The notes under the pieces are model-generated. The model was not told the origin of the DNA. It saw only the letters and a list, made by a program, of their open reading frames with translations, and ran no database searches. DNA of 64,000 bases from Massalongia carnosa (taxonomy: Eukaryota). The position numbers and the translations under genes are program-made. The DNA lies in contig OZ287067.1 in assembly GCA_965645245.1 (NCBI GenBank), forward strand, positions 372,001 through 436,000. Reading direction: 5' to 3'. This document shows positions 6,538-63,659 of the stretch, one piece after another; the first letter of the stretch is position 1, and the number at the start of each line of letters is the position of its first letter.

Positions 6538-8033
6538 ATGGTAGCTGAAGAGATATTCATTCCTGAAGAGAGAACGGCTTCTACGCATCCATAGACTCGT
6601 CAACGGAGTCGCTGGAATTATCGCGAAAACAATAGTTCAGACGACGGCGACAACGACAACGACGTTGAAAGGCGGCTTATCAGACTTCTTGATGCTTTCT
6701 ATCAATCTTCTAATCACCATTCTGGCTCTGGGAAATACCAAACTATCAGCAACGCTGAAAATGAGGCAGAAAGCCTCTATTTAAAAGAAAAGCGTTTAGT
6801 AAGATTGATTATCTGCGAAACACTAAATAAAAGGAATTCTTCATCTACGTTCCCAAAGGATAATCGGTATTGGACGGGCAAGAATTTGGCCCAAACTAAA
6901 ACTTATCATTTGCAAGACAGCTTAAAGCATGCCACAGTAATTTGTGGGTGTCCTCATCCGGATAGGATACTTTGCGGTTCAGCTAGGACTCTTGCTGGTA
7001 TATTAGACCGAGCAATTGAGGAACTTCACGATAGTATCGCCTTTTGTGCTCGGTTGCTACAATCTCAAGGAACTTCCAGGAACCAAGAAACCTCTAATAT
7101 AACGCTCTCTCTGAGGTAATCAGTGTCATTGCACTCATCAGGTGAAGTCGAAGTTGTTCAATAGCGTTCATTAGTTTGCCAGTTACACGCTGCCAAAAGG
7201 TGTTCTGATGGTTGCCCGCCAAGGCTTCAATCAGATGACTCTACCTTAGGGCCGAATATTATTGGAAGAACCAACAACACGGGCGCTGCTAATTCAAACA
7301 GCATAAGAATGGCGATTCATACTGCCCCCCAAAACCCTCTCGGACAATCTGCACAGCTTAGCGCTCAGAACACAATATCATTTCTTAATCCTTGGGTTAG
7401 GCCGAAACCTGCCAATTGGCAGCTATGAATTCGAACAGGAATTCACTCCAGCTAAACCCAGCCATGGCCTCTGGAAGGGTCTCTCAACTGCCGCTCACTG
7501 ACCACGAACTCAATTGCATCAAAGCCATACTCCTGCAATCATCGGGATAGACGATGTTCCTTTGATCACCTGCTTCCAACAGGAGTCGTGGTGATGTTCC
7601 TTTGATCACCTGCTTCCAACAGGAGTCGTGGTCTTCTAGAATTGATCACGAGCGAAAGTATCTTTCCCGTCAGATAACATCGTGAGACCAGGCTTCGATG
7701 CTTCGATGGATTTCAGCGGCATTTGAGCGCTTTCAGCGCTACCCATCTTCGGAGAGCTCATGATGGCCAGTTGAAGAGCCTCATCTCTCACCATGTACAT
7801 CCGCACAGTATGCGCAACGTAGTCGAGGACAAATCAAAATGTGCTATATTCTTATTATGATGGGAACTTTCACGGTGGTGGGAAGTCTTGCCCCGGCCTT
7901 ATGGCGTTCTGGAAATCGAAACGATATGGCCGGTGGCTTCTCACTGGCTCAGTATCTCCTTGGCTTTGGAATGTTCGTTACTAGATCGGTGTTAGTAATA
8001 CATAGCAGAACGTGCACCTGCTGGAAAGGTTGA
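6538..8033 (+). pseudogene. possible decayed hypothetical gene with C-terminal hydrophobic segments
   Basis: Frame from ATG 6538 is open to 7119 except TAG 6592-6594. The 7839-8033 peptide has two hydrophobic stretches. No recognised family. Confidence 0.25.
7553..7632. repeat. perfect 40-bp tandem duplication
   Basis: GATGTTCCTTTGATCACCTGCTTCCAACAGGAGTCGTGGT at 7553-7592 and 7593-7632. Confidence 0.95.
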
Positions 8034-9550
8034 GCGATTTTGAAACGCTGAAGGGCTCCGCAACAACTACGCTTAGAATCCATCAGTTAAAGTACCAGAA
8101 TGCCAATGCCTTCATATAAGGCTTCCGGACTAGCAGTCTTTTGTGGCTCCGAGAGAAGCATCTATTCAACATCCCAGTACTTTATACCTCTTGAACGCAA
8201 TTTGAGAGATGGTGACCACTTAACGGTGCTATATCTGTCGTAGGTAAAACTGCCACATTTCATGGTTAAATGGAAGCCCCATCCAAAGATCTCAAGACGT
8301 CCAGATGGTATTTGTATTGCTTAACATGATCACGTGATGTCAAAGTCCCTAAAATTCTTTGGGGTAATCACTAAGATCCCACTCAAGACCGTCATAGCTT
8401 TTCAGTCAACACGAATCTACTTATCTGTTGCTCTGCTCCATATCGAGACGTTTTCGGGAACAAAAAAAACGTTTGCTCAATACGACGCTCGAAAGCACTG
8501 CAAATTAGGTTGTTGTTAACCGTTCAAATGTTACGAAGTAGAGCAAGCGTTTCTATCTGTCTTCAGGGCAAATGAACCTTTTTGTTGACCACAGCGCTTT
8601 AGGTTACCCGCAAGATATATTATCGGGCACAACAATACGGCTTAGTTATATCTGACGCAGCATCAATACCTGTTGCATAAATATATGACTATGAGTATAT
8701 GATTATGGTGATAACTAGCAAAGACATACTCATGACCGTGATAAAAACTAGTCTGAGCTTAGTTGCTTAATCCCTCGTAAATAAGATCTATTCTGGGTTT
8801 TTTTTATTTCTTTTCGGATCAAGTGATTATTGAATATCGATGCGTTTAACTCTTTACTGTAAAACGAGATCAAACTACAGCCTGATCTTATTTAGTTCAT
8901 CTTTAGGCTAAGCCTAATCTGGCCAACTACATAATTAACACACTCTTCAGGTCTTACTATGGAGTGTTTCTTCCAAACAAGCCAGATGCCTTGATGCTGT
9001 ATGTAAACATCGCAGATCAATAGACTGACACTGTCAAGTCAGATAGACCATCAGCGAGCATTCTTAGGTGAAACGTGGGAATCTGGAACACAGCGACATT
9101 AAGATAAAGTTGGCGACCTATTTGCGGTCGGCCCCGATGGCAAGATAGCAACAACCGCCACCTGAACGTTCATGCACGTTTCCCAGCTCCCCGACAGGTC
9201 ACAGGCGCATTGAAATGCGGTGAGATATACCCAGGTGCGTTAGACTGATTCGCAGAATGCGCTTAGTCATTGATGGATCAAATTCAATAGGCTACCTGCA
9301 CCTCCTGAACATGCATGCACAGCGTAAATCCGCCTAAGTTTTCTCTTTCCGGCTTCAGATCTGCAAGATGTCATTCTGAACCGCAGCTCGCGAAAGAGAC
9401 GATCTCTAATCAACATTACGCGCTCTAGCCCTGCTAAGTTCCAGGCCCTTTTCCTCGCGTGAGGTTCGAAATGTGGGGTTTCCCAAAATCCCATAACCTT
9501 TTACTTCCTACCCGCTTCAACCTAGACTCCCAGCAAAGCTTTTGATTGCC

Positions 9551-30538: not shown

Positions 30539-32123
30539 TTAAGAGAGGGCAGAGGTATTCGCTATGGTATCTGTAAACCGTGAGGTAAAAGGTGCCGTCT
30601 CATTTCCGTCTTCATCGTTGCGCGGTGGATTTGATACACAGCTAGTGCTCGACTGTACGTTGAAGACCGCTGGATCAGGAAGCCGGATGAGAACAGAACA
30701 AATCCTTTTAAGATGGGTGGGAGCGAATGATTTGTATACGTTTATCGTGAATTTGTAACTCGTCCATCTCTCTTTTCCTTCCCTATCAGTGATGTAGAAT
30801 TTTGTGATTGGATGACGATAGAAGCTTGCACCATCTCCATCGATTAGGGCGTAATGACCGTAGATTCGCACGGCTTCGTTATCGTGAGAGACAGAGAATG
30901 GTAGGACAGTTCGATGAAGCTCTGCTTGTCATCCAACTCGTCTAAAGAGTTCGACAATGCCTTTCACAGCGACACCTGCGCTATGCATATTCTAGCGATC
31001 AGCAACATTAAGGGCTTTATCGCCACACTTAACCTCACAGGTTAAGAACGGGAAGTACAAGTCTTCTCTGGCCATGACAGAGCATTGATCCATGTATCTG
31101 CTGACGAAAGGTGTAAGCCTGTTAAGTTCATCCTTCGTAAATGCAGATGCCCTAAACCCTACAGAATAATCCGGTTGTGGACGAGTATCCGTGAGAGGAA
31201 GGCATTTCAACCAAGATGAATTAACCTTTTCGATCAAAATTTCAAGCTCGGAAGCTCCATAAGTTGCCAATGTTCCTACGGAAGCCACAAGCAACCAGCC
31301 GATATCTTTGATAACCCTGGCTTCGTTTTCAGTTTAGATCTTCGAGCAGGTTTTAATTGAAGAGATCATCATGGAAAAATGAGTCCGATGGAACGGATTG
31401 TTCATCCTCCAGTAACTGCCGAAAAATAGTCATACAAGCTTCTGTGAGTTTTAAAGGAGGATGGTTCATGAAAGCTCCGGCAGTGGCAAGATAGGTCTCG
31501 TACTGAGCATCCTGGTAAGGAGCACTCTTTGCCTCTCGAGGCAAAGAACTAGATGCTCTCTGGCTAGATTGCAACTCTAGGCTGCGGAGAGATGAAGATC
31601 TCCTCCCTTGTAAGCGGCGAACTCATATTAGATTTACGTTTGAAGTACTCTTTAGGCCAGGTATATTTTTTTCTCCAGTACTCAACTGGATTGACGTCTC
31701 TCGGAAATTCCGAGCTAGAGCTGCTTTGGGAAGCAGAACTTTCGGAGGAGTTTCTCTGTCGATTAGCCTGATGATCTTCCTTATCTTGTTGGGCCACGAC
31801 TTCTTCGGTCTCAGTGCGTTTCCGCTTTGGGTCAATTTTCTGAGGGTTGGGTAAGCGTGACACGTCCTGTATGAGATTTGGCCGGAGTCAGCTTCAATAC
31901 AGCGTGGTAAAGGATGTTAAACGCGCCTCTTTGATTGAAATATTGTTACTCGTAGGGTTCGAATTGGTGAGAGGAACTGATCTTGTTCGGTCAAGAAAGC
32001 TTGAGCTGAAGAGTTTCAGTAAGAGAGATTCTAAGTACTCATAGTTTCTCTACCTTGGCCATTCAATGGCTTCATCGCCCGCTTAAGGTTTGTAACGCCT
32101 GATTTCACTCGCAATGGACCCAT
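30539..32123 (-). pseudogene. disabled member of a widespread fungal hypothetical family (DUF7924-like, nuclease-fold-like motifs)
   Basis: RPQPDYSVGF, YFPFLTCEVKCG...LNVADR*NMHS, FSVSHD...VRIYGHYA. Stops at 30992-30994 (CAG>TAG), 30929-30931 (CGA>TGA) and near 31335, frameshift near 31353. Family name from memory. Confidence 0.75.
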
Positions 32124-32784: not shown

Positions 32785-32926
32785 AGAAGTACGAGTATTA
32801 CTTTAAGGAATTATCGAAAAGAAAAATATCTAAGAAGTACGAGTATTACTTTAAGGAATTATCGACAAGAAAAATATCTAAGAAGTACGAGTATTACTTA
32901 AAGGAATTATCGAAATGAAAAATCTC
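32785..32926. repeat. 48-bp minisatellite, about 3 copies
   Basis: AGAAGTACGAGTATTACTTTAAGGAATTATCGAAAAGAAAAATATCTA at 32785, 32833 and 32881 with few substitutions. Confidence 0.95.
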
Positions 32927-35230
32927 TACCTAGCTTTACAATGACCATTATGTCTCTTCTCTACACCTAGAAATCTAAATATTTATTCCAGAAACTGACG
33001 GATTTTGCCTCCAATTCCTCAACGATCAAATAATTCTACTTTCAGCGTTCCGACTTAATACGTTTCAAACCCTACAATCTCTTTCTCTTTAGCGTAAGCA
33101 TAAAAGTGGCGCTAGAATAGCTCTCGTTTAGCTGTCTGACTGCTATTGTGATTCGACGGTCGATATTCAGAGCTTCTGCAGCTGTGTAATGACGCTAACG
33201 GGTAGATCAAGCGTTGGTGGACGACTGACATTGGGTGCGTTGTTAAGGACCCAATCTTTGGGACATTGCCTCCCCCGTGGGGTGAATAGTCACACTTTCT
33301 GAAAGCGGATTTCCGAGACTCATCAAGCTAGCCATTATACAGAAAATCAGGTTATGGGTGGCGGCCCTGTTCGGCAGCCAGTAAAGGCGAACCCATTCTA
33401 GGCATAGAAATCGGAATACCTTCTTTATATCTCAGAGGGTAGCTTAGTGCTGCTATCTTGGTTTGATCATAGTTATCGATAATTTATTAAGCTTAGAACT
33501 CAAAAACCCGCCCTGTAATTTGAGCATGTCGCTACGCTTGGTTGCTTAGAGTGGGCTGCTCCAACAAGGTGTCTGGTTCGGACTCTCTTTGTCAGTATTG
33601 TTTCTAAAAAACCAGCTTTTTTAGGCTATCGTCAAGAACTACGAGTTCTTACATACACCATCCAGACAAGTGGCGTGTCAAACCGCTCGCAATAATGATC
33701 CGGTTGCTTCTCCCAACCTTCATCAACGTTCCTAGGATTCCGGTGAAGGGTACCTTCATGATGCCTCGCTGGGCGCTAATCTCATCGTCGGAAAACATAG
33801 CTGGCTTAACTTAAGGTATTACTCATGAGTTGTGGCAAGTGTGAGTTAGTTACGGCTGGCAAGGCGATTCGATGACATCTTTGCCGGAACAATGCAATAC
33901 GAATTGGCTCGCGCAACCAATGTAATCGAAAAGCCTAGAAATCATAATATCGTGGTGACAGAACAAGGTCTTAAAGCCATTCATTTGCTCGATGCAGGCT
34001 TGATCTAATGGAGTCACCGAGTCTCGACCACAAGCTTGCTGAGATTAATTGCAGAAGTTTTGGGACATAGCGGACCATCAGCTTGTTCCCTTCGGAGAAA
34101 GGCCAATGAAGGAACCATTTCGGCAAGAGATGAGCTGGCAAAATGGAAAGCCGAGAGAATACATATCACATGACAGTTGGTTGAATAGGTTACAGCAAAT
34201 AAGTAGACGAGAGTGCATATAGCATTACATTGCACAGACCCGATCCTCGAGTCGAAATCCTAGCCGCGTCATCATCTAACCAATGTCAGCCCGTCTAATA
34301 CGAGAATTCAGCCGATGAAGAAACCCTCTCCACCATCTATGTACGAAGTACCTAATCAGGTACTCCCAGTCCGGACGCCTCTGCCCCTCCTTCCCCTCCT
34401 TTCGTCGGTAGTAACTCTCTCTTACTTGCGCCCCGGCTACGGAGTACACGGAACCAACGCTCACTCACTCACTTACTAAAATGCCCCGAAAGCTCGCCAT
34501 TGGCGCCCACTTCTTCACCACCCCACTAGTTTCCACCTATGCGCGTTCATATGTATGCAATATGCAATCTGTAGGGATGTTCTCCGTACGGTGACCGATA
34601 GTTAAATCATGCCGAACCGAGCCGTCGGATCTCTCAGCTTTGGCTCCTCCCCCACCAAGCCCCAAATCGCGGGAACCGCGGGACGGACAGCGAAACAGTA
34701 CTCTAGGTACCTAAACCAGAGTTCGTACGGAGTATGTAATCTAATGACGTTAAGCACGAAACCGCTAGTTAATTGGGCAGCCCCCAAATCTCCTCCGCAG
34801 GTCGAGCGGCTAGGCTATCATTTCCCAAGCCATACGGAGTAACTGTCCAACTAACTACCAAGGCTTTCCTCGAGCGGGACTTGCCTTTATTTTCTTCCTT
34901 TTGCAAATGGCATAGGGCGGAGCGCCTAAAAAGGAGCGGCGGGGTGCCGGATGTCATGTTCAAGTGCAGAGTAACAAGTTATTGGAGCGTGTGAGATTTC
35001 AAGGCAAAACTACTAAAGATAGACGACTCTGATGGAGTGATAGATCAGAATGTCTTATTGATTTTCAACTATGAAGCTGAGATGTGCATTGTTGCCAATG
35101 GCTAAGTGATGCTGGCAAGCCAGCCTTTAAGCGAGTTCGGCCAATGGGATAGCCATGGCTTCTAGCTATCAAGGAGCAAGTGCATACGCTTTCAAGGGCG
35201 TCATATCCTTCGTCATCGCAAAGGGCTCTT

Positions 35231-36375
35231 CTACCCACCCCTCTCATAGTTCGCAACTTCTGGCTCTATATCCCTTCCATCCCCATCGCCCGGCGGGAAT
35301 GGCCGCTCAATCTTAAAGCCGATATGATGCCTCATGCGATCAACATACGCGTTGGCCTCGGCCGAGTAAAAGGGTAGTTCTCGCCGCTGGTAACTGGCGG
35401 GGAGATCCTCGTCAACATAGAATGTCCGCACGTCATCCACAAACAATGTCGTAGATCCGTCGGGTCCTAAGCGGCCGAGGGTGCCGACGAGGTTCGAGTA
35501 TTGGGCCCTGTTACGCACTTATGTTAGACCACAAAACCCTGCTAGGAGCTTGCTCAATGCGAAACATACAATGAACAGACAGCGTCCCGATTGCCGAAGC
35601 GGAAATTTGGATCCTCGGCCTTACTCTGGTTGTGGCGGAGATGATGATGCTCCGCGAGGTCTTCGAGAGTCAGGGTCTCGCCGTTCTTGGAAAAGCTCAA
35701 AAGAGATTCGAACAGCGTCATGTTGATATTCACATTTTCTCCCACAGTGCGATCGTTTCGTGTTGGGGCAGTAGGACAATTGATAAGGTGTTGGACTTTA
35801 TCGTCCTAAGAGATAGATGTTTGAGAAAACTCTCATGCCCTGCCATGACTTGACGAAATACGTACATTGAACCAATCAAGATCGATGCGGGTGCTAGGTG
35901 CATGAACTGCAAAGGTAGGCCAAACCACAATCACAATCTATATCATTATCAGCAATCAAGGCTGCAACGGAGCTTCCGTTCGTACGTTGTCGATTCCAAA
36001 GTTGTAGACTTTCGCTACTGCATTAATGATCTCTTCGGCGGTGATCTGTCTGCCCGATCTAGGGAGGTATCCCCGATTAGCCAGAACGTTAATAGCCGGA
36101 CAAGATGACCGCCGGTAAAGTCCATTCTCGGAGCCGTTAACGTGGTGTTCGTAGTAGTGGGTGGTCTCGTTAATATTAAAAGGCAATTTGCCCGGGGAAG
36201 GATGCTGGGGGGTAGGAGTGAATGGGCATTCGCAATTAAGTGCTTTGGGTTCCAGAAGGACCTCTTGAGCAAATGATGCCTCAGCAACTGAAAGACATAG
36301 TGAAAAGAAGACGATAAGAGAGAGGAGAAACGAAAGGCGGAAAGGTAAGGTACGAAGGAGTTGAGATTGGGGCAT
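35231..36375 (-). CDS. heme-thiolate peroxidase (chloroperoxidase/UPO family) homolog with non-canonical active-site motifs, 4 exons
   Basis: Signal-peptide-like N-terminus. RSSCPAINVLANRGYLPRSG (proximal Cys region), N.TLFE.LL, LTLEDLAEHHHLRHNQSKAEDPNF, FYVDEDLPASY. Three GT-AG introns. Confidence 0.85.
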
Positions 36376-39300
36376 CGGTAGCTGATAGGAATGAACTTTG
36401 GTAAATGGGTAGGAGGACAAGCTTGGGGGTCTTGCCAGTGTGTATGTACGAAGTCCGGTAAGATGATCAGCAGCTCAGTGTCTATCTTAAGTGCTGCCTG
36501 CTTCTATCGCCGCCAATATGCTCTGTCCGTTCTCTCGTGTTAGCCAACCAATGGATAGTACGCAGGTACTTAACGCCGGCAGCTATGTTTTCGTCCAAGC
36601 GTACAGAGTACTTCTGAACAGAGTGCTGGATCGCCGATTGCGAGAAATCCGCCCTGCAATGCTGTACTGCCACGTTTGAAGTTGGTGTTGAGAATGGATG
36701 GCCTAGGTCTTCGGCTTTGGAAGTAGCTTTGTTCTGTACTCCGTACAACGACGCTTAAAGCATGCATATGTGTAGGTTCACATGAAGCATAGGTACTGCA
36801 ATGGATCACGTGCCTCGTCACACCGCATTTGACAAGGAACGTATGAAGCGCCTTTTCTTGAACGTATCCCACTCCACGTTACACGACAGTCCCCCGCAGT
36901 GCCAAGAGGGTTTAATCACACCAATCACTTCGCCATTTGTCCCACTCACTCTAACGCTATACGGACTCGTTGATATTTTCCCGTCTTTGGCTGCCTAGGT
37001 ACCCAGCGTTCTTGTCGTCCGTTTTAAAAACGTATTACTTCTTTGTATTTTAAAGTACAGAGGTATGGACTCCTAGTTCAGTAATCCGACGCTGTGAGTC
37101 TTGAATGATTCCTTTTAGAAGAGAACCAGCCAATTTCCCTCCACCTTTCTCACTCCACCTAAATACACCTAAATACAGATTACCTTACTGACTTACGTGC
37201 TTGGACTTTGTACCGTAGGCAAACTGACCCAGCAAGGCCCGTCCCGGAATATCATCAACCTTAATTCGACCGCTAACGCTAGCTAAATCAACGAGTATGT
37301 ATGTACCTGGTGCCAATATAGGTAAATACTTTATCTGCTTATTAAAGAGACAAACTTCAGGCACATGCAAGAATTGTCCCTTCAAACCAAGCTGTAAGGG
37401 ACTCTAATTTTGATGGGCTCACCCATAGTATTCCAGAAGATGACTTTATACCAAGATTGTCCTCTTCCAAACTTCAACGGGTCATGCAGGGGAGCAGTAT
37501 AAGCTTGCTCGACTTTGCTGCGGATATTAGTAATAAAGACATCAATCAATATTCTCATTGAACGAGATCATGTTGGCGAGATCGTCATGCTCAAAGTTCT
37601 GAAGCTCGTTTATCATCCATTCTGCTGAGAGTTCAGAAGATTGCATAGGATTGTGGGCTTCATTAATGTCACCGATATCTCCAGCTACTGACCAGACGCC
37701 TTCAACATCTCCTTGATTGCCTGCAAAAAGAACTCCTTAACATCTTGAACGTCGCTCGAGACAGCTATTGTGTATTGGGCAAGGGGAGCAAGCTTGAATT
37801 TCAGTCGTCATTCGTCAATAGAAACAGCGTGACGGATATAATCTACGGTTCAAGAACGGTGGGTAGATGTGTTTTAGTGGTAAGTGGCATGTCAAAATTG
37901 CGGCGGAGCTGATGGTGTCGAACAACCCTTGAAAATGAACCTTGGCGTTGACTCGGCATAATGTCTTCTTGAAGGTTTGAAACCGTTGTTGAGCTTCTGC
38001 TGTCTTGGAGCCACTGCCTTTCTCATATCTTAATCTAACCTATAGGCAAAAGGCACCATTTCTTCGTTGGCCATTTAAAGTATGCTAATCGTGCTGATCA
38101 TCCAAGTAAGAAGACGAGCTCCTCCCAAAAAGCCGGCGATAAATATCCTGTCCGTCTCAAAATTATATCGCATGACGAAGCGATACCTAGCGATGACGTG
38201 TTGGTTCAAACTTGTGCCAATTGCCTCGCCGATCTTTTCTAATACTCATCACACGAATGTTCTCCAGATTTCGAAATTAAGGGATCCGTCTCCAGTCGTA
38301 TAGGTCCCTAGTGAATCTACGTTTTACGGGAAATATACCAGCATAAACTCAAAGCACAGAAACAGTAAGGCAGGACTTATGCTGGTAGTAGTGGAGTTGA
38401 TCGGGGCTTGCACGATCTAATTTCTGATAGAACTTGACAATACTATTATCGGACACGTCTTCAGCTTCATGATTTCCAGTTCCATCAACTTACGAAACAA
38501 GCATTGATGTTCTCCTACCCAGCGAGCTTTGATTTGAGGCAATGTTCGTAAGATCCACTGCTGAAGCATAGAACTCCTAGTTGAAGTCCTCAACAGTCAA
38601 AGGATAACGGGTGAGCGACAATATGGAAAAGATGACAGCAAATAAGCTTCGAATATAATCTACAATGGCATACATTATAGAAAGCGAACGTAACCAGCTA
38701 TCTACTAGGTAACCCAGATGTACTTAAGACCCCTAATACAAATCGTTGGAAACCAGTCCCGAAAGCGTCAGGGCAACTAACATGTTCTTCTGTCATCATA
38801 AAACATGACTAGTAAGAAAGCTTTCTGGTTGAAATAATGAAACCATTGTATTGACGCCAAAAGTACAGTGTATTCTGCACTAGATATGGTTATTACTGTG
38901 GTACATTTTGCAATCCCACTCTAAAATCGAGTTCTTGGAGTTAGTCTCAATCCTCGCTTGCCTTGACGCCTCGTCTTAGCACATGGTGTGAAAGCCAGTC
39001 AGGTCACCTCCCTTGCACCTATTGTAAACATACCTAACTGTTTTACACATATCATGTGCGCGTTCATGAACCTTCTTGGGCCTTCACTGCATGATTCTTT
39101 GCTGCACGTGGATCCCTCAGTGCAACGAGCTGGCGGGGTATGTATCAATGCTTGAACTTTTCGAGTCTGCAAAGAAGAGAGGACGAACCCCCGTCGTAAC
39201 AATGTGGCTTGTTGAGACAAATTACTGTGTCCAGCCAGGTGTTGAGGTCCTCGTAGAACAATCCAGCCAAATACCCCAATCATATTCTACAGGGCATTTT

Positions 39301-39432
39301 GCCGAGAGACTTCCGATATTTAGGGGAGTCTTTGGGCTGTGTTTAAATAGTGTGCAGCTCCCTCCATTCGTGAAAATCGAGATGTGATAGCTTGTCAGCC
39401 ATATTTTGCTATCGGACCTAATTTCAAGCACC

Positions 39433-42400
39433 ATGGCTCCCAACACTACCAATTATGGGGATGACTCCCTTACGGATCAAAGAGCTCGCGAGACTGGTAT
39501 CTGGGAAGACATCAAGGCACTTGGCCCAGATTCAGGTCCCGAAGTCCTGGCCTTAATGGAAGAACTCCTATCTAAAGGGAAACCCTACGCTGACAGAACT
39601 ATGATGGTACGCGCGATTTGTCCCCCTTGTTCGGCGGATATTTCTAACCTTCCTCGATAATAGGCGGAACGCGTCATTCAACTAACAGCATCTTTGCCTC
39701 GCTCATCCAAATTGCGAGAGAAGCTTTCCACATCTCTAGTCAAAATACATTGGGGTTCTCTTCAGCATCCTCCTCAGTCTTACTATGGTGACGAGTTCCA
39801 GTATCGGACGGCCGATGGTTCTTATAACGTAAGTTTTCTTTAGAAGTCAAGAAAAGTTCTTATCTGATACAGTCATTAGAATGTTATGATCCCTCACCTC
39901 GGGAAGGCTGGCATGCCGTACGCAAAATCAGTGCGGTCTGTTAAGGGGCTTCATGGAGCGAAGCCAGACCCCGGTCTTCTCTTTGATTGTTCGTCTCTCT
40001 GTATTATGTCTCTTACCGTTGTTGCAAGTTAACCCCTTTTGCAGTATTGATGGCAAGACCCGATGGGAAATTCCGGGAAAACGAAGCAGGAATAAATAGC
40101 ATATTATTCTACCATGCTACAGTCATTATACACGGTATTTTCCTCCAATAAGGGTTTTTTATTCCAATCTAAAAATCTGCTAAGACCTTTTTCGAACCAA
40201 CCGCCTGGATTCTAGAATTAGTGACACATCTTCTTATCTGGATCTTTCCCCGCTTTATGGCAAAGATCAGGCCGCGCAAGATACTGTGAGAACCTTTAAA
40301 GATGGGAGACTGAAACCTGATACATTTGCCGAAGAACGACTTTTAGGCCAACCGCCAGGATCATGCGTCATGCTCATCATGTACAGCAGATTCCATAATT
40401 ATGTTGCAGAAAATCTAGCAGCAATAAACGAGGATGGACGGTTCAGTTTACCGCGGCAAGATAGCTCAGCCTTTGAAGCTGGGCTCAAAAAAAGGGACAA
40501 TGATCTTTTTCAAACCGCCAGGCTGTATGTTGGAAATCTGAAGATTTCAAACCTCCATATGGATAAGCTAACGCTATCGCTTGTAGTGTTGTCTGCGGAT
40601 TATACATGAATATTACCTTACACGATTATATTCGTGCAATCATCAACATCCACCATTCAGATTCATCATGGACCATGGATCCACGGGGAGATATTATTAA
40701 TTCGGATGGTTCACGGGCTGTAGAGCGCGGCGTTGGCAATCAAGTTTCAGCAGAGTTCAACTTGCTATATCGATTTCATTCTGCCGTATCTCAAAGGGAT
40801 GCTAAGTGGACCGCAAAATTTTTTGGGGGAATATATGGAGACAAAAGGCCGGAAGACCTCGACATCAACGAATTCATAGCTGGGGTCGCTGCTTTTGAGA
40901 GTAAAATTCCCAGCGAACCGAGTGAACGGGTCTTTGGAGGACTGACCCGAGACCCAAATACCGGCTGCTTCGACGATGGCGCTATGGTACAAATTCTCAA
41001 AGACAGCATGGAAGACCCTGCTGGTATGTCGATCACTGTTGCTTCGGAAGAAGCCCAGGCTCTAACATCATTGGTCTCGTGTTAATGTAGGGGCTTTCGG
41101 TGCGAGAAATGTCCCGAAAAATCTGCGAATAGTCGAGATCCTCGGGATATTGCAATCAAGAAAATGGTGAGGTACCTCTGTGAGCCGTTCCTAAAATGCA
41201 TGTTAACAGCTACGCAGGCAATCGGCAACGTTGAACGAGTTCCGTCAGTTCTTTGGGCTGAAAGTTTATGACAAATTTGAGGAGATCAACCCTGACCCAG
41301 AGATTGCCGATCTACTTCGCAAGCTCTATGATTCTCCAGATATGGTTGAGCTTTATCCTGGATTTTTTGTCGAAGAAAACAAACCACGTATGGACCCTGG
41401 ATCCGGGATTGGAATCAATTTTACCGCGGGTAGGGCCGTCCTTTCTGATGCTGTCGGCTTCATCAGGGGAGACAGGTTCTACACAGTAGTAAGTATCGAT
41501 GCGCGCAAGAGAAAATCTTTCTCGTTTTTGTCAAAACTGTAAGCATACGCTTATACAATTCCAGGACTACACCTCTGCTACATTGACGCCTTGGGGAATG
41601 GCCGAAGTTCAGCAAGATTATGATATTCTTGGAGGCTCCATGCTCTATCGGCTCATTCACCGTGCATTTCCTGGACGTTTTCAGTTCAATAGCATTTACG
41701 TCATGCAACCAATGTACACGCCAGCAACGAATCAAGAAATCGCGAAAAAGTTCGGAACTTTGGATCAATACTCTCTTGCTTCTCCGGTAACAAACCCTAA
41801 GCTTACGATACTCGACACGCAGGCTGCCATCTCTCTTGTTATGAACGATCACAAGAATTTTAAGGCAAGCTACGAGAACAAGCTATCAGACTTACAGTTC
41901 GCCGATTTTCTGCTATGCGGAGACTACTCAACCGATCGAGCAAACCAAACATTTTTGGGCACACGAGTAGCAAATTGCCCTGGAGGACTCAACTTGTTCT
42001 CAAAGAGCATTGAATCTACGATGCGCAAGATCCTTGAAAGAGAGTCGTATAAGCTGAAAGATGTATACCAGGTTGATATGTCAAAAGAGTGAGATAAGAC
42101 TTCCCCAAAATTTCGTTGTTAACTAACCTATTCGGCAGCGTTGCTCGAGTCGTGATGGTCCATGTACATGCCGAGTTCTTGAATCTTCCATTGGCTGCGG
42201 ATCGAGAGGACAAAAATGGGCTTTCTGAAGAGGAAATGTATCGACACTTAGAGACATATGTGAATTATATCTTGATCGATAATGATCCTGCTGAGTCGTG
42301 GAGACTCCGACGTCAAGCGAAAGCAAGTTATGAGAAGCTTAAAGCGGCAACTGAGGGCCTTATTCACAGCACTCAGCGAAGCGACGGGTTTCTAGGCCAT

Positions 42401-43313
42401 GTCTTTGGCGGCGCCGCTGCCCCATCTGGATCGCTAAGGGAGATGGGCCAGAAGCTAACCAAAGATCTCTTACATGCAGGGTATAGTGTGGAGAAAACGG
42501 CAACAACTCTATACAGTATCGCATCGAGTGGAGTTGCGCCCACCGCAAGTTTGGTGAGTTTTACATTGCAAGGATAGTGCATCTTCAGTTTCTTCGTTCA
42601 TCTAACACATTTTAAAGTTCGTGCAAATCCTCGATTGGCTTCTAAGGGCTGAAAATGCGAAACACTGGGCTGCTGTACGGGCTTTGGTTGCAGAAAATAC
42701 AGCGTCATCATACGATAATCTCAAAAAGTACCTTCTCGAAGCCGGGCGATACCAATCATTCTTTTCGGCAAGCCGCGTTTGCATCTCAAATGAAGGTGTA
42801 ACCCTTAAATTGGGAGGTTCTCAAGACGACCATGTGACATTGAAAAAGGGTGACGTTGTTCTAGCCAATTATGTGAGTATGAGTAAATCATCTAGAGAAA
42901 TGGTATCCACATACGCCGCCGTTGACTGATTCACCAATTTTGTGGTTCGCAGTCAGCAGCTACCCAAGACCCCAAAATATATCCAGACCCCAAAGAATTC
43001 AAGCTTGAGCGTCCAATCGATTCTTACCAACTTCTTGGCTGGGAGCCTCATCCCTGCATTGGCCGAGACATCGTTATTGTCGCTCTGGCATCGATGGTCA
43101 AGGTCTCAGCTACGCTCAAGAATCTGAGAAGAGCCCCAGGCCCGCAGGGCCAAGTAAAGTTTGTTCCGGGTCCTCTGGGGAGCAAAAGGTTCCTCTCAGA
43201 TGATTGGTCTCACTTTCAGCCATTTCCTGGCGGTAGGTCCAACTATCGGGACTTCTCGGGTAGCCTTTACTGACGAGTTGATAGCTTGGAAAGTACACTT
43301 TGATAATCTTTAG
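39433..43313 (+). CDS. fatty-acid dioxygenase-cytochrome P450 fusion (Ppo / linoleate diol synthase family), about 13 exons
   Basis: LQHPPQSY, YRTADGSYN, ATVIIHDLF (distal His), SSYLDLSPLYG, EFNLLYRFHS (catalytic Tyr, proximal His), GDRFYT. P450 part: EAGR (ExxR), PKEFKLER, GWEPHPCIG (heme Cys). No lesions seen. Confidence 0.93.
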
Positions 43314-44044
43314 CTTCTGCCACTTTCGCAAGGATTCAAGTGAGATTTTTTGCTATGGTTTGTATGTTGCAGCTTGTTTACCGCACTTTTTAGTCATCTA
43401 TATGGCTTATCAGAGTTACCCTTGTCAATGAAAATTATCCAAATCGATTAACCTTTAGGTATGATTATCACACGATGAAAACAGTCGATACATATGCTAC
43501 TTTTCTTGGATGTTTGTCTCTCACAAAGCCTACCCCTCATGTTGCCAACCCTAGCAATCCCTTGACTTTGTGATCAAGCTCCTCGCTACCGCGGAAGCCT
43601 CGAATGCCGTGACTATCACTGTCTATGCTCCCATTAGAGGTAGCTCTAGCGTGAGAGAAAGAGCGTTGAATTCTTACCTATCGACTACAAATAGCTTGAC
43701 CTTAAAGAAGAGTCCAGCTCGGCCCTCTCCAGTTTTCCTATTTATACGGGAAGAAACCCAGCCTTGATTTCCATTCCATGATAATGTTGGCCCGGACGGT
43801 CGTTGATGCAACCCCACCCCCTTATCCTGAGACACTGTAAGGGAAAGTATCTATGTAGAAATACATCCAACGTTCACTATAAACGAATGAGCGGCTAGAG
43901 CAATTGCACTCAGGTATTGCACAAGCCTCATCAAGGCTGTTACAGAATCTAAGAATACCGGTCTAGCAGACAGTAAGACAATGAAAAAAATCCACAACAT
44001 TTTGTTTATCAATTACCACTGAATAACTAGATGATTGAGTGGAT

Positions 44045-44496
44045 GATGATGTATTCATACTCCGGTATGACACCGGCCGTAGGCCGGCCCATGCGGGCAA
44101 AGCTATCTATGTAAGTTATGTTACATGGAAAACCTTTCATAGGTGTAAAAACCATATCCCTTGATACCCGTCCAATGTGACTACGGGTCGATGTCGGGCG
44201 GGAGACGCAGTGCAAAAGACGTGTGGGAACTGTAATGCCTTGTGAAAAGAGAAGAAAGAAAGAAAGGTTCAACTATTGTTGATTGTACAATAATGTTGAT
44301 GCTAGTGAGAATTGATTCAATAAGCCTGTTTTCATTAGCCAAGCAGTTAGTATCTTCAGAGTTTTTGATGATGCGGTCAGCTGCTGATAGTCGCTCGTGC
44401 CGGCGGCGCGAAACATCTGTTCTCTATTGTCAATAAGTCTGCAGAACATGAGTACATGTTCTGGAGTTTGTCTGTGCCAGCCACATGAGCAGGCCG
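44045..44496 (-). mobile_element. 5'-truncated Tad-like LINE fragment
   Basis: 12-bp TSD GATTGAGTGGAT (44033-44044, 44497-44508). Peptide ACSCGWHRQTPEHVLMFC...LTAWLMKTGLL is homologous to the 3834-4692 LINE. (ATC)n tail. Confidence 0.88.
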
Positions 44497-44563
44497 GATT
44501 GAGTGGATAACTCATGCTGAGTAATTCTTTCAGTGAGTTATTGACTACAGAGTACGAACAGTG

Positions 44564-45033
44564 TATAGTTCCCTGCTAAAAGTCTGCGTCCCGAAGTAGT
44601 TTTACACCAAATTACGTACTTTTTAAGAATTTATTATATAACATACAGTTAAAGAATTTTTTCATCAAGATTCTTTGAACAGTTTTTAACAAAGAATTTA
44701 AAGTATACGATTTCGAATTTATTTTATCTAGGTTTATGATACGCAATGTATCGATGTATTAAACAGAAGTTGAAATTTAAAGATTTCTATACAAAAATAA
44801 GCGAAATTGGTTGAAATTAATATTCTCTTTATGAAACATGAATACAGAACATACGGAGTAGAATAAAGAAGAATTCAAAAATCGTAGTACTACAGATTGA
44901 TTCTTTCAAGAATCTCTTTTATTAAAAACAGAATCTAACAAATTGCTTAACTATGTATGTATAATAAATTTTCAGAAAGTACAGGTTTGGTGTAAAACTG
45001 CCTCAGGACGCAGACTTTTGGCCTAGTACTGTA
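44564..45033. mobile_element. AT-rich Tc1/mariner-type MITE
   Basis: Imperfect inverted repeats GCTAAAAGTCTGCGTCCCGAAGTAGTTTTACACCAAA (44575-44611) / 44986-45022, differing by four transitions. Extends to TA-(C/T)AGT...ACTG-TA ends. Non-coding AT-rich interior. Confidence 0.78.
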
Positions 45034-58071: not shown

Positions 58072-59349
58072 TAACCGGGAATCGGCCAAAATTTTACCCC
58101 ACCAAATTCTCCCCCCTATTTACCATTCAACATCTCAACATATGGCTTCACAACGCCCTACCACCCCTAACTTGGAGCTCCGGGCTGCTAAAGCTCATTA
58201 TTCTACTCCTACCAAAGCTGCAGTTCGAAGTGTCATTCATTTCGCTGAGCGAATGAATTTATCCTACTCCCTACAGAAAACAGGACGTTTTCCAAACATT
58301 CAACGTTAGTACAACGCGTGGCTATGAGATGCTTCGAAATAAATCTTATTCTTCTTCTTCTCGTCAATTTCATCATAATCCTGATGAAGAAGAAACTCAA
58401 GGAAGAAAACAGCTTATTTCTTCCGTCAAAATTCGGGAGATGGAACGTATTCTAGAAGAAGAAGGAATTGAAGCTCGCTCCCTGACTTGGCAAAAATCGG
58501 GCTACGAAGTAGGATTGGATTGTAGTGGTCGTACGGTGCAAAGAGCTATGGGGACAATGGATTATCATAAATGCGTGTCTTGCAAGAAGGGCTGGGTCAA
58601 CCTCAAAACTGCTGCTAAAAGAGTTGAATGGTCAGAATTCATGTTGATCAGATATCCTAATTCAGAGGATTGGAATCGTGTACGATTTAGTGATGAGTTG
58701 CACTTTGGTTGGGGCCCACAAAGTAAACTTCGCATCATTCGAAAACCAGGTCAACGATACTGTCAAGATTGCATTCAAGAGGAGCACATGCCAAATAAGA
58801 AGGATAAAAAGCGTCATCATTGCTAGGCAGCAGTTGGGAGTAGTTTCAAATCATTTATACATTTCTACGATGTAGCTGGCAATATCAATGGAAAAATAAG
58901 TCGAAGGCATACATTGATCAAATTCTTGAGCCCGTCGTCAAGCCATGGCTTGATAATGGTCAGAATTTCGTGTTGGAAGAAGATGGAGACTCAGGTCATT
59001 GACCAGGCAAATCAAACGTCGTTCGTACGTGGAAGGAGAAGAATGGACTAGAGCATTATTTCAATTGTGCCTCATCTCCCGATTTATCCCCCATTGAAAA
59101 TTGCTGGCAGCCCGTCAAACAGGAGCTCTACAAGTATCCTCATTGGGACGACGTGACCACCAAGAGCTTGATTTATGAGGGGTGGGAGCACGTGTCTCAG
59201 TCATTTATAGATGAAAAAGTAGCTAGCATGCTAGAAAGGCTAAAAGCGGTCATTGACGGTGAGGGTAAAATGACTGGTTATTGATTGTACGTAGCAATGC
59301 AGAAAGGGATGGTTTTTCGTGGGGTAAATTTTTGGCCGATTCCCGGTTA
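58072..59349 (+). mobile_element. Tc1-like DNA transposon (DD37E spacing), complete ends, disabled transposase
   Basis: 29-bp TIRs ACCGGGAATCGGCCAAAA(T/A)TTTACCCCAC (58074-58102 / 59319-59347) with TA TSD. Transposase 58142-59284 has [13 protein letters not shown] and SPDLSPIEN, plus two stops and frameshifts. Confidence 0.93.
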
Positions 59350-59843: not shown

Positions 59844-62800
59844 TCAGGAAATACTCCATCGAGGCTTGTTAGGGTGTCGAAGATAGAAGTCTTCTACTAT
59901 GTCCTTAGCATTTTCGAAGCCAGTTGCGTCGTACCATTGTCTATCTTCATCATGATCCTTCCATTTGACTTTGAATTGGACTTTTCGATAGTACCTCCGA
60001 GCGTCCAGTATGTCATCCACCTCCCATTCTTCCTTGTTGTCTATTACCGGAGGAGGTGGTTCATTTACTTGTCCGGGTAGAGGGTCGTCAGCTGTTTTTC
60101 TCAATAAGCTGGTATGAAAGACGTCATGAAGTTTCATGGAAGCTGGTAGCTTTAATCGGCATGCGGATCCGATGAGTTCTTCCACTCGGTATGGTCCAAC
60201 CATTTTATGGTCCAGCTTTTTGGAGCTTCTCTCGGTTTGGATGTTTTTGGTGGATAACCAGACCATGTCTCCTTCCTCATAAGTGACTTCGTTTCGGTGC
60301 CGGTCCGCGGCGGTCCTTTGTCTTTTCCTGAGCTTTGGTCATGCTGTTTCGGACGAAGTCCCAAACTTTCTCCATGTCCTCGGTGATGTCCTTGGCTGTT
60401 TCGTTGGCGAGTCTTTGACGAGTGGTGTCGGCCGACAAGTCGGTCAAACTAAAACTCATCCTTGGTTCATAACCTCGATTGGCCATAAAAGGTGAAAGGT
60501 GGGTGGTTTCTGATTCCCCGGAGTTCGCCGCAAACTCGGCCATTGGCAATAGTTCAACCCAGTTGTCCTGAAAGTAGTTGGTGAAACTCCGGAGGTGTCG
60601 TTCCATTTCCTGATTGGCTATTTCGCTTTGGCCGTCCGTTTCAGGATGAAATGCGGTGGAAAGCTTTGCGATGATTCCTAGGATTTTACATATGCCCTTC
60701 CAGGTGTCGGAAACGAACTGCGGTCCTCGATCAGAAATCATACTGGTTGGGAGGCCGTGATATCTCCAAACATTCCCAATCAGCAGTTTAGCGGTGGCTT
60801 CAGCGGTTGTTCCCTCGTCCTTGGCCGTGCATGGAATGTAATGCCGTTCCTTTGACAATGGGTCGACTACCATCAAAATTGCATTGTGACCATTTTGGGA
60901 TTCTGGAAGTCCAGTTACATAATCCAACGAAATGTCTGTCCATGGTCTTTCAGGAACTGGCAGGGGTTTCAGTACTCCATTGTATTTGTCCCTGGGTGCT
61001 TTGGCTCGTTTGCACATATGGCAATTTCTGACATAACGCCGAATCGAGTTCAACATGCCTGGCCAGTAGTAGTCCCTGGCGATTGTTCGTTGTGTTTTTG
61101 CCATTCCGGGATGTCCAACTGCTACTTGATCATGAATTTGTCGAATTACATCGAGGATCAAATCATCGTCAGCGGGAACCCATAAGCGTTCGGCTTTATA
61201 GAGGTGGCCTTCCTTGATTACACAATCCTTGATGCTGGGGAGCGGGTCTAGTTCCAGTGATTCTTCATAGTCCTCTTCGGTCAGCTTACTCCTCATTCGG
61301 TTGCAGGTCTCATCTGAAATATTTCTATGTTTGATCTTTTCTGCGAGGGTAAGGTCTTCATCGATGATCTCGATTGGTTGAAGGTCTAGTCTATCCAAGG
61401 TCAACACCGTTTGTAATTGATGCTTTTGTCTTTCATCTTCGTCATCCTGTGGCTTGTCGTTCGGACGACGTGTAAGAGCATCAGATTTTTCATTTTGCTT
61501 GCCCGTCCTATAGGTGATGACAAAGTTGAACTCTGAGAGGAACTCGGACCATCGGGCCTGTCGTCTGGTGAGTTTCTTTGTGGTCATAAAATGTTCCAGG
61601 CTTTTATGGTCGGTGAAGATTTTAACGGGTAACTCGGTGCTTTCCAATTCGGGCCTCCATTGTTCGAAACATCGGATAATGGCCAGCAGCTCCTTGTCAT
61701 AGATTTCATAGTTGCATTCAGCGGCGTTGAGGTTCTTGGAGAAGAAGGCGACTGGGTGCAACTCTCCATCCTCTCCGTTCTGAGACATTATTCCTCCATT
61801 GACGTGGTCTGATGAGTCCGTGTCCAGATAACATTGTTTCTTCGGGTCGAAGTGAGCTAGGACTGGTGCTTCAATAATTCTCTGTTTCAATCCTTGAAAT
61901 GCTTGTTCACAGACTTCATTCCATTCGAATAATTTTCCCTTTTTCGCCAAAGCGTTCAGTGAACCAGCGATCTTGGAAAAGCCTCTTATGAAACGTCGAT
62001 AAAAGTTACAGAATCCTATGAAAGATCGCACTTCACGAAGACAGGTGGGGACTTCCCAAGTGACTATGGCCTGAACCTTGGCTGGATCCATTTTTATTCC
62101 TTCCGTGGTGATGATTAACCCCAAGTACTTGACTTCAATAACATGAAATTCGCACTTGTCTACACCACTTGAAGACCAGCTTCTTGAAGTTTGGCCAACA
62201 CTTTTCGGACATGTTCTTGATGTTCTGTAACATTCTTGCTGTAGATCAAGATGTCGTCCAAGTAGGCCGAGCAGAATTTATCCAGGTACTCGAACAGAAT
62301 GTCATTGATGAAATGCTGCCAGGAAGAAGGTCCGCCGGTCAGTCCGAATGGTAACACCTTGTATTTGTACGCTCCAAAGCGGCAATTGAAGGTGGTAAGG
62401 TCCTCGGATTCCCTGGCCATTCTCAGCTTGTGAAAAGCCTGTCGAATGTTCAGTTTGGAAAACACTTTGGCTTCCTTCAACTGGGCTAGCGTTTCATCAA
62501 TCAAGGGCAATGGATATCTATCTTTCTTACTTAGTTGGTTCAATTTTCTGTAATCAACACAGAAACAGAGTCCTCCACCTGGTTTCTTGGCTAATAGGAT
62601 AGGAGAAGAACATGCGGCATGACTGGCCTCTATGAACCCCTTTCTTAGATTGTCCTCTAGATATTTCTTCACGAACTCCAATTCCATGCGGGACATACTC
62701 CTCAAATAGCTGTGTCCATGATCTTGATCTCCGGTCAACAGGATCCTGTGATCGTATGGGCGATGAGGTGCTAGCTCATCTGGTTCAGCTTTGGAGAATA

Positions 62801-63659
62801 CCTTCAGAAAGTCATGATATTCTTCAGGAACTTTGGTCTTCGGGTCGGTAGGAGTCGAACTTTCCTTGTTTAGTTGATAGTCAATGTCCCTCAGAGAAAT
62901 TGCGAATAGTTGAACGTCTTTCTCCTTGGTCAGTGATTTATAGGCCGCAGCCCCTATGAGGGCGCAGTCTATCGGCTTATCTTCAGCAGATGACTTTTGT
63001 GATATTCTTTCTGATAGTTCTTTTCCGATTTTCTTAAAAGGTACCGACAATGGGGCGGATCGTTCCGTACAGGTCTCTTCCGGTCGGACTAGGATTTGCT
63101 GGACCGTTCGGGTCTGTTCTGGTTTGTTCGAAGCCGACGTTGTCTGCCTCATCATTTTCATCGGCGTTGGCAGTCCAGGGGCGCCAGGATGGGTGCAATG
63201 CTCAGGCCAGAACATGATCTTGTCGTCCTTCATGTCCAGGAGGAGTCTGTGCTTCCTCATCCAAGGTTTTCCTAGAATCATTCCGTGCTGCCCTAGTTTG
63301 GTGATCAGCAATGGTAATAAATTCTCACGATGATCCTGCATCGTCATGGTGGGATAAATGGCATGGGTAATATTAGGGGCCCGTCGTCCATCAAATCCTC
63401 GCACCGGTTTGGGTTTCGTCAGTTTCTGGGGTTCGATTTGAAGTTGTTCACAAATAGTGCGCACCATTGATTCGTCGATAAAAGCATGTCGCGTAGCACC
63501 GGTGTCTAAAAGAGCATCAAGCTTTATCTCATTCCTGTTACCTAACGTACATGCATGAACAAAAGGTTCATCGGTGAACAAATCACCAGGTAATTAGGAA
63601 GAGGAAATCCATAGAGGTTCCTCCTCATCCGCGCCTTCAGATGAGGTTATTCTTTTCCC
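59844..63659 (-). pseudogene. gypsy pol, lightly disabled
   Basis: Stop at 63594-63596 and frameshifts near 62165 and 60330. RT motif reads KLNIR (usual Asp replaced by Asn). Confidence 0.88.
63653..63659 (-). other. -1 ribosomal frameshift heptamer G GGA AAA at the gag-pol junction
   Basis: Matches X XXY YYZ in the gag frame one codon before the gag TAA (63647-63649). The -1 frame GKRITSSEG... is the pol frame. Confidence 0.8.

Follow-up and report, generated by a model that had tools for sequence, protein, structure and literature searches.

Can a heme-thiolate peroxidase (HTP) that has lost the residues for activating hydrogen peroxide serve as the partner enzyme of a fatty-acid dioxygenase? 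The question is raised by a locus in a 64,000-nucleotide stretch of the genome of the lichen fungus Massalongia carnosa (contig OZ287067.1, positions 372,001 to 436,000; hereafter the window). The source genome is fungal and 52 Mb in size (assembly G000). In the window, a gene for an HTP variant and a gene for a dioxygenase (DOX)-cytochrome P450 fusion lie head-to-head, and an initial annotation had proposed that the two form an oxylipin module in which the secreted peroxidase homolog converts the hydroperoxide made by its neighbour. Based on residue changes, linkage and joint decay, we conclude that the HTP variant is a probable heme-thiolate enzyme acting on the fatty-acid hydroperoxide of the neighbouring dioxygenase (probability roughly 0.68). 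The idea of a partner enzyme is supported and reaches wider than the window locus, and the most probable role of the variant would be a conversion of fatty-acid hydroperoxides that uses no H2O2. Papers are cited by PMC number.

The HTP variant

The divergent orientation of the two heme-enzyme genes and their ATG codons at 36375 and 39433 were borne out by spliced models, which were predicted from the DNA by joining frames at GT-AG introns. As the initial annotation had stated, both genes are intact, with neither a stop codon nor a frameshift in either frame. The Peroxidase_2 profile matched exons 1 and 3 of the HTP gene above the Pfam cut-off, and the N-terminus has a hydrophobic signal (score 2.80). 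The axial Cys92 lies in an SCP motif of the PCP type. The protein thus has the profile match, axial cysteine and fold (see below) of the PF01328 superfamily.

The distal features of the canonical unspecific peroxygenases (UPOs) and chloroperoxidase (CPO), namely the EHD or EGD motif with its cation site and the acid-base pair of Glu with His or Arg, were absent. Asn163-Cys164-Pro165 replaces EHD, and Gln235 replaces the acid-base Glu. In comparison to the UPO of Marasmius rotula (MroUPO), the family profile reads NCPAA for EHDAS (residues 85-89) and Cys for Ile153. The catalytic Glu157 of MroUPO aligned with Gln235 both when the profile register was extended and in an alignment with six canonical outgroups, five of which have Glu. 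The acid-base pair has been described as crucial to Compound I formation in UPO and CPO (PMC6417270). The initial annotation was therefore right that the neighbouring peroxidase is without its H2O2-activating residues, as both the EHD motif and the acid-base Glu are replaced.

The family alignment had 39 rows (the window, 12 loci and 26 proteins). Gln, Asn and Pro were each found in 38 of the 39 rows and the axial Cys in 37, the non-conforming rows being gaps, a truncation and a pseudogene; the two rows without the axial Cys are one deletion pseudogene and one truncated contig. As the residue changes are common to nearly all rows, they do not reflect local decay. Cys164 and Cys231 are absent jointly in three rows (two events) and never singly among the ungapped rows, which suggests that they may form a disulfide at the former His86 site. 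The family was found in Aspergillus, Penicillium, Botrytis, Monosporascus and lichen fungi (37 matches), and the NCP/Gln variant defines, on sequence grounds, an ascomycete HTP subfamily.

The fold was determined for a predicted model of one family member (P0012; predicted local distance difference test score 78), which has neither the Cys164 nor the Cys231 counterpart. At E<=0.001 the structure search with this model returned UPO/CPO structures exclusively (best E 4e-11), with no P450 or catalase fold among the matches. An ESM Atlas search with the HTP variant gave generic Peroxidase_2 clusters and nothing more specific. A profile search of representatives at 50% identity added a single full-length member, the divergent P0111, along with numerous exon fragments. 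Two very long matches (P0114 and P0145) were considered as HTP-dioxygenase fusions and found on inspection to be canonical multi-domain HTPs.

Linkage to fatty-acid dioxygenases

For the named genomes, locus tags and accessions were compared across the HTP, DOX and lipoxygenase (LOX) searches, with the best 120 of 458 LOX matches included; consecutive tags give the order of annotated genes, not distance. In total 28 named species had an HTP-variant record, and 18 of them also had a dioxygenase record from the same assembly among the matches listed. Within these matches the two genes were consecutive in 15 of the 18 species, next to a Mn-LOX in 14 and a DOX-P450 in one. The Mn-LOX group comprises aspergilli (A. 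fumigatus, A. felis, A. sclerotioniger, A. aculeatus, A. affinis, A. melleus), Penicillium roqueforti, P. freii and Botrytis cinerea, together with Xylographa bjoerkii, Villophora microphyllina, Gallowayella weberi, G. concinna and Teloschistes hypoglaucus. The DOX-P450 case is Circinaria calcarea (Q9187_002482/002483), with the same DOX-P450 as in the window. In T. flavicans (one of the 18) the HTP and dioxygenase records agree in contig size only.

The A. fumigatus ortholog AFUA_4G02780 has the tag directly after loxB (Afu4g02770), which encodes a secreted Mn-lipoxygenase with 13-hydroperoxyoctadecadienoic acid (13-HPODE) as its main product (PMC5422543). The Botrytis ortholog BcPRD6 likewise adjoins a Mn-LOX (BCIN_02g06330), and overall the linkage spans Eurotiomycetes, Leotiomycetes and Lecanoromycetes. 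The initial annotation had suggested looking for orthologs that are unlinked in other genomes. Linked ones were found, next to a DOX-P450 in Circinaria calcarea and at the metagenome locus L016 and next to a Mn-LOX in 14 named species, and the partner idea therefore came through this check.

The metagenome scan covered the best 80 of 201 loci, 31 of the family and 49 with canonical HTPs. Thirty family loci were grouped into 10 lineages, and the fragment L056 was left out. A dioxygenase was located within 10 kb of the HTP variant in eight of the 10 lineages (seven LOX, one DOX), and the HTP and dioxygenase genes were divergent in seven lineages. The two partnerless lineages are contigs of 7.2 kb and 1.1 kb. 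At the 49 canonical control loci, many of them short, LOX was found at none and a DOX fragment at one (L079); the 18 controls of at least 6 kb had neither LOX nor DOX. L079 (25-345) is a short contig with a canonical EHD-type HTP and a divergent DOX N-terminal fragment. The two canonical HTPs of the source genome had no DOX or LOX match nearby, the closest DOX match on the same contig being 0.29 Mb away for one and more than 2 Mb away for the other.

The partner slot is thus filled by two unrelated enzyme families with the same product class. The commoner form of the proposed module would pair the HTP variant with a secreted Mn-lipoxygenase, and one lichen-fungus clade that includes the source genome would have a DOX-P450 instead. 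The two-gene DOX module of the initial annotation stands as a real pairing but is better described as an HTP variant with any source of fatty-acid hydroperoxide, the DOX pairing being the minority form.

Other neighbours recurred in the metagenome lineages, with HlyIII/PAQR in four, DUF829 in four, a thioesterase-like gene in three and a nitrilase in two. Several LOX-HTP loci (L022, L025, L034, L035, L040, L042) repeatedly had DUF829, nitrilase-family hydrolase, HlyIII/PAQR and thioesterase-like genes. A SLATT_fungal gene was observed near the HTP gene in two lineages of the DOX-linked clade (L015:2680-4191 and L018:3712-5562).

Joint decay and phylogeny

One lichen-fungus lineage (lineage A; L014-L017, L029, L031-L033, L039) is represented by nine loci of about 95% identity, with DOX, DUF2235 and HTP in the same order as in the window. 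All nine HTP copies were disabled by varied lesions, including loss of the exon stretch with the axial Cys. The DOX gene had two frameshifts in L016, was reduced to its last 41 codons in five loci and was out of range in three. The DUF829, SLATT and downstream genes were open wherever covered, and the same was true of DUF2235 apart from L016, where its match was shortened. The window is the reverse: its DUF2235 copy is dead, with seven frameshifting indels and six stops across 930 nt aligned with the L015 copy, and the 4.1 kb of coding sequence of the HTP and DOX-P450 genes has zero lesions. HTP and DOX were therefore kept or lost jointly, independent of the gene between them; the co-decay is one event in one lineage. 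Based on the lesion-free 4.1 kb around a dead gene, both heme-enzyme genes are probably maintained by selection.

DUF2235 has the same place and orientation in the HTP-DOX gap of L015 and L016, where its open reading frame is mostly open. The remnant in the window shows that HTP and DOX were originally not immediate neighbours. DUF2235 is a Tle1-like phospholipase domain and could once have provided free fatty acid; its L015 copy is at 7290-8384, and most lineage A loci have the gene open. We rejected DUF2235 as a required third gene of the module, since it is dead at the window and mostly open where the HTP/DOX pair is dead.

In the HTP tree the DOX-linked proteins (window, Circinaria and lineage A) grouped in a single clade with a FastTree support of 0.88, and its sister group comprised all LOX-linked HTPs (0.88). 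The tree does not settle the direction of a partner change from LOX to DOX, the deepest member (P0111) having no known neighbour.

Expression in other species

In A. fumigatus treated with 5,8-dihydroxyoctadecadienoic acid (5,8-diHODE), AFUA_4G02780 was induced with log2 fold changes of 4.09 (30 min) and 2.34 (120 min), and loxB with 2.47 and 1.94 at the same times (supplementary rows of PMC7557911). Eight contiguous genes, AFUA_4G02730 to 4G02800, all exceeded a log2 fold change of 1 at 30 min, whereas the adjoining genes had 0.62 and 0.51; genome-wide, 361 genes exceeded this value (PMC7557911). The block includes the DUF829, nitrilase and HlyIII genes that recur at the metagenome loci, and the cluster also has a P450 and a major facilitator superfamily gene. 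The block resembles a so far undescribed cluster responsive to oxylipins, in which a lipid receptor may be encoded. The A. fumigatus HTP protein itself has been detected with few peptides among the signal-peptide proteins of mutant conidia (PMC7389560). For Botrytis, the supplement rows examined of PMC6557632 list both genes and give no gene-gene correlation.

The DOX-P450 fusion

The An_peroxidase profile matched two of the seven DOX exons scanned, and the p450 profile matched one exon weakly. The fusion has no signal peptide (score 0.37). The DOX domain has the distal His179 and Tyr354-Arg-Phe-His357, a YxF motif as in 9-DOX, and its substrate-site residues, at the positions that distinguish 9S- from 9R-DOX, fit Ile390, Ile609, Arg617 and Leu620 of 9S-DOX when compared by eye with Table 2 of PMC13049297. 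In the P450 domain, ExxR (Glu908/Arg911) and the heme Cys987 in HPC (HxC) are kept, and Pro863 occupies the axial (Asn) column of the I-helix. Pro is also found in this column in Circinaria, whose P450 is in addition without the His of HxC, whereas nine of the 10 aligned lichen-clade orthologs have Asn. Only matches of more than 900 aa were aligned, and the Leu of L016 was left out of the count as the gene is broken.

The nearest characterized likenesses are the 9S-DOX-allene oxide synthase (AOS) of Fusarium oxysporum (X0CM68) and the 9R-DOX-AOS of Aspergillus terreus (Q0CW98), which share the YxF motif and a P450 without NQxQ. X0CM68 also shares the 9S-DOX substrate-site residues, a likeness drawn from the published table and not from aligned sequence. 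The window P450 differs from both in the absent Arg of substrate recognition site (SRS) 2, the axial Pro and HPC in place of HEC. It also belongs to a lichen-fungus clade of its own, with 57-68% identity inside the clade and 41-46% to other homologs. Features of 9-AOS were missing (Arg of the SRS2 RxxxV/F motif; Val/Thr-PxT/G of SRS4), as were those of 8R-linoleate diol synthase (LDS) and 10R-DOX-epoxy alcohol synthase (EAS), the PpoA and PpoC types, since the motif is YRF and not YxW and the NQxQ of SRS4 is absent. SRS4 was also considered as the (V/A)PxT pattern of 9S-AOS, which was rejected because in the alignment the axial position is taken by Pro and not by Ala.

The initial annotation had noted that the fused P450 is without its I-helix Asn. 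The residue is indeed changed, but this alone does not mark a disabled P450, as 9S- and 9R-AOS natively have Val or Thr in this column and are active (PMC13049297, Table 3). Faster change of the P450 domain in the HTP-linked copies was not seen in terminal-branch P450/DOX ratios, which were 1.6 and 2.0 for the linked pair and 0.6-2.6 for seven other lichen orthologs.

The source genome had at least six DOX matches and at least one non-Mn LOX, and the genome search, whose counts are lower bounds, gave no Mn-LOX match. The sole LOX match (L013; G000:C9:258743-259750) ends in Ile, is of the non-Mn type, has an open frame of 656 aa and is not linked to any HTP. The lichen-specific DOX-P450 clade (P0077-P0087) combines 9-DOX motifs with the axial Asn in most members, a pairing absent from the published table, and its product is probably uncharacterised.

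Features of the window

The coordinates of the features are given in Table 1. The HTP and DOX-P450 genes are 3057 bp apart. Public contigs of two sequencing runs (X1 and X2) cover 33500-44090 with 0 differences, which speaks against misassembly only, because the runs may be from the source sample. Decayed sequence and transposon relics had been reported as the immediate neighbours of the pair, and this agrees with the broken DUF7924 copy to the left and the very high-copy repeat to the right.

Table 1. Features of the window and their coordinates.
Feature	Position	Strand	Remarks
HTP (PF01328) variant gene	35231..36375	-	4 exons (36375-35986, 35937-35866, 35805-35570, 35507-35231), 324 aa, GT-AG introns
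DOX-cytochrome P450 fusion gene	39433..43313	+	13 exons, 1054 aa
DUF2235 (PF09994) alpha/beta-hydrolase pseudogene	37319..38567 (approximate)	-	in the HTP-DOX gap
Broken DUF7924 gene copy, left flank	30539..31916	-	paralogous stretches on other contigs
Very high-copy repeat or transposon relic, right flank	44042..45033	.	loose ends at both coordinates; contig depth, when summed, reaches several hundred times that of single-copy sequence
48-bp tandem repeat	32785-32928		three copies (94% match), in the decayed left flank
Gene with weak fungal fucose-lectin match and membrane-like segment	26058-27574	-	between a haspin kinase gene and the decayed island
Long terminal repeat retrotransposon	59844-63593	-	long reverse transcriptase/RNaseH/integrase frames
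DDE and Tc-type transposase relics	950-1666 and 58257-58826

Proposed function and comparison to known systems

Fatty-acid hydroperoxides are the products of Ppo-type and LOX dioxygenases, and their rearrangement by thiolate hemes that have a distal amide needs no reductase; the amide faces the heme in plant AOS, prostacyclin synthase (PGIS), LDS and EAS (PMC13049297). By analogy, the DOX domain of the window would probably yield 9S-hydroperoxy-linoleate, which would bind to the cysteine-ligated heme of its neighbour, the HTP variant. As that enzyme is without both the Glu/His pair and the cation site and has a distal amide (Gln235), H2O2 would not be activated, and the O-O bond of the substrate itself would be cleaved, as in self-sufficient P450s and catalase-related enzymes. 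The product would be a rearranged oxylipin, such as an epoxy alcohol, an allene oxide or ketol, a keto-epoxide or lyase fragments. If the variant does convert the hydroperoxide, intramolecular rearrangement takes about two thirds of the likelihood, and oxygen transfer driven by the hydroperoxide or peroxidase chemistry one third. The hydroperoxide-converting role put forward in the initial annotation is thus retained on the strength of the linkage to hydroperoxide-forming dioxygenases, and its argument from the missing Asn of the P450 is weak.

Several known systems share part of this arrangement. Short UPOs and CPO (MroUPO, 5FUJ; Leptoxyphium CPO) have the same fold (template modelling score, normalized by query length, of 0.64-0.70 with the highest-ranking short UPOs), the axial Cys motif, a secretion signal and 20-22% identity to the HTP variant. 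The variant differs from them in NCPxA for EHDAS, Gln for Glu157 and Cys for Ile153, without an acid-base pair or cation site, and in its fixed dioxygenase linkage, which was found at one of 49 canonical loci. Self-sufficient P450s (plant CYP74A AOS, PGIS, fungal LDS, EAS and AOS domains) have a Cys-ligated heme and need no reductase (PMC13049297), but their P450 fold is unrelated to that of HTPs. The distal amide of plant AOS, PGIS, LDS and EAS is Asn, whereas that of the variant would be Gln at the Glu position of UPOs.

The catalase fold offers another parallel in Fg-cat of Fusarium graminearum, whose gene adjoins a LOX gene. Fg-cat is a repurposed H2O2-handling heme enzyme that acts on a fatty-acid hydroperoxide (PMC11719350), and the Nostoc 10S-DOX with its separately encoded catalase-related lyase follows the same two-gene logic of a dioxygenase and a repurposed H2O2-handling heme enzyme (PMC13049297). 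In contrast to these, the window protein has the HTP fold with predicted thiolate ligation, and partners of its type are secreted and occur with Mn-LOX as well as with DOX. Of the features of hydroperoxide isomerases (CYP74, catalase-related AOS and hydroperoxide lyase), the variant has the genomic pairing with a dioxygenase that forms hydroperoxides, but not the P450 or catalase fold.

AFUA_4G02780 ('toxin biosynthesis peroxidase, putative') and BcPRD6 belong to the same subfamily, with 61% and 58% identity to the window protein and the same residue changes, but their neighbour is a Mn-lipoxygenase and not a DOX-P450. Their names occur in lists without a function in the parts seen of PMC7389560 and PMC11959156. 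In a search thin on subscription papers and supplements, we found no literature describing this HTP subfamily or its dioxygenase linkage. Pairs of a dioxygenase and a converter are known, and we found none on the HTP/UPO fold, although absence from print is not proven. The ascomycete clades of the HTP superfamily have been described as largely putative with a variable distal side (PMC4420034), and a motif-filtered survey of UPOs dropped sequences without catalytic motifs (PMC6417270). Such filtering may be the reason that the subfamily was missed.

Alternative explanations

Several points weigh against the proposed function. Heme binding, substrate and product are predictions for a subfamily with no member of shown activity, and the equivalence of Glu and Gln comes from sequence alignment and not from coordinates. 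In the linkage counts the species are related to one another, 10 of the 28 were outside the test, and A. coremiiformis and Heterodermia (two of the 18) have the HTP gene non-adjacent to the dioxygenase records among the matches listed; many genera with Mn-LOX had no HTP-variant match in a limited HTP search. The control loci are taxonomically unmatched to the family loci. Co-induction comes from one treatment in a different species, in which loxB had low counts and over 4000 genes changed in expression at a false discovery rate below 0.05 (PMC7557911). The compartments at the window do not match, as the HTP variant has a signal and the DOX-P450 does not, LoxB being secreted. The fused P450 looks maintained and could itself consume the hydroperoxide. 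Finally, the LOX-type clusters have other recurrent genes, and the HTP substrate could be a later intermediate.

This last point leads to the unlikely alternative that the variant works in the same lipid pathway on a later or conjugated intermediate of a larger cluster, or is a non-catalytic heme- or lipid-binding protein. The recurrent metagenome neighbours, the eight-gene A. fumigatus block and the loss of every canonical catalytic residue speak for it. However, none of the extra genes was found within the 64-kb window, where HTP and DOX are both intact, the dioxygenase is the sole constant neighbour, and the axial Cys is kept in all complete, unbroken members. Detoxification, in which the variant would have a protective role as a hydroperoxide reductase or peroxidase and clear the reactive dioxygenase product without making a new signal, is improbable. 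It would agree with the strong induction by added oxylipin in A. fumigatus and has a precedent in the hydroperoxide-dependent peroxidase Fg-cat (PMC11719350), but the acid-base pair crucial to Compound I (PMC6417270) is gone, and a scavenger need not be tied to, and lost with, one producer gene.

A narrower version for the window, compatible with action on the hydroperoxide, is that the HTP variant does the work of an inactive fused P450. The axial Pro of both intact HTP-linked DOX-P450s and the missing His in Circinaria point this way. The version is nevertheless doubtful: 9S- and 9R-AOS are active without the Asn (PMC13049297), the window P450 keeps ExxR and HxC, the branch ratios lie within the range of the other orthologs, and the two Pro cases are sister sequences and thus one event. 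Inherited gene order without functional coupling is strongly disfavoured. The family members do share ancestry, and DUF2235 was carried along in the same block, but the linkage holds across three classes with two unrelated partner families, and the joint loss with intact flanks and the co-induction also argue against it.

Implications

Tentatively, and at slightly less than even odds, the HTP/UPO fold may join CYP74-type P450s and catalase-related enzymes as a third scaffold for a rearrangement of fatty-acid hydroperoxides that needs neither a reductase nor H2O2. Where Aspergillus, Penicillium, Botrytis and lichen fungi secrete a Mn-lipoxygenase, it may provide the missing downstream enzyme; in one lichen clade a DOX-P450 takes the partner slot. 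A role of LoxB in spore germination has been published, and the text examined of PMC5422543 does not give a downstream step. If the proposed function is true, it would name the enzyme that acts after secreted Mn-lipoxygenases such as A. fumigatus LoxB and give one branch of the HTP superfamily a natural substrate. If the third-scaffold reading is also true, these fungi would make an undescribed extracellular oxylipin, and an HTP subfamily would have a defined natural substrate.

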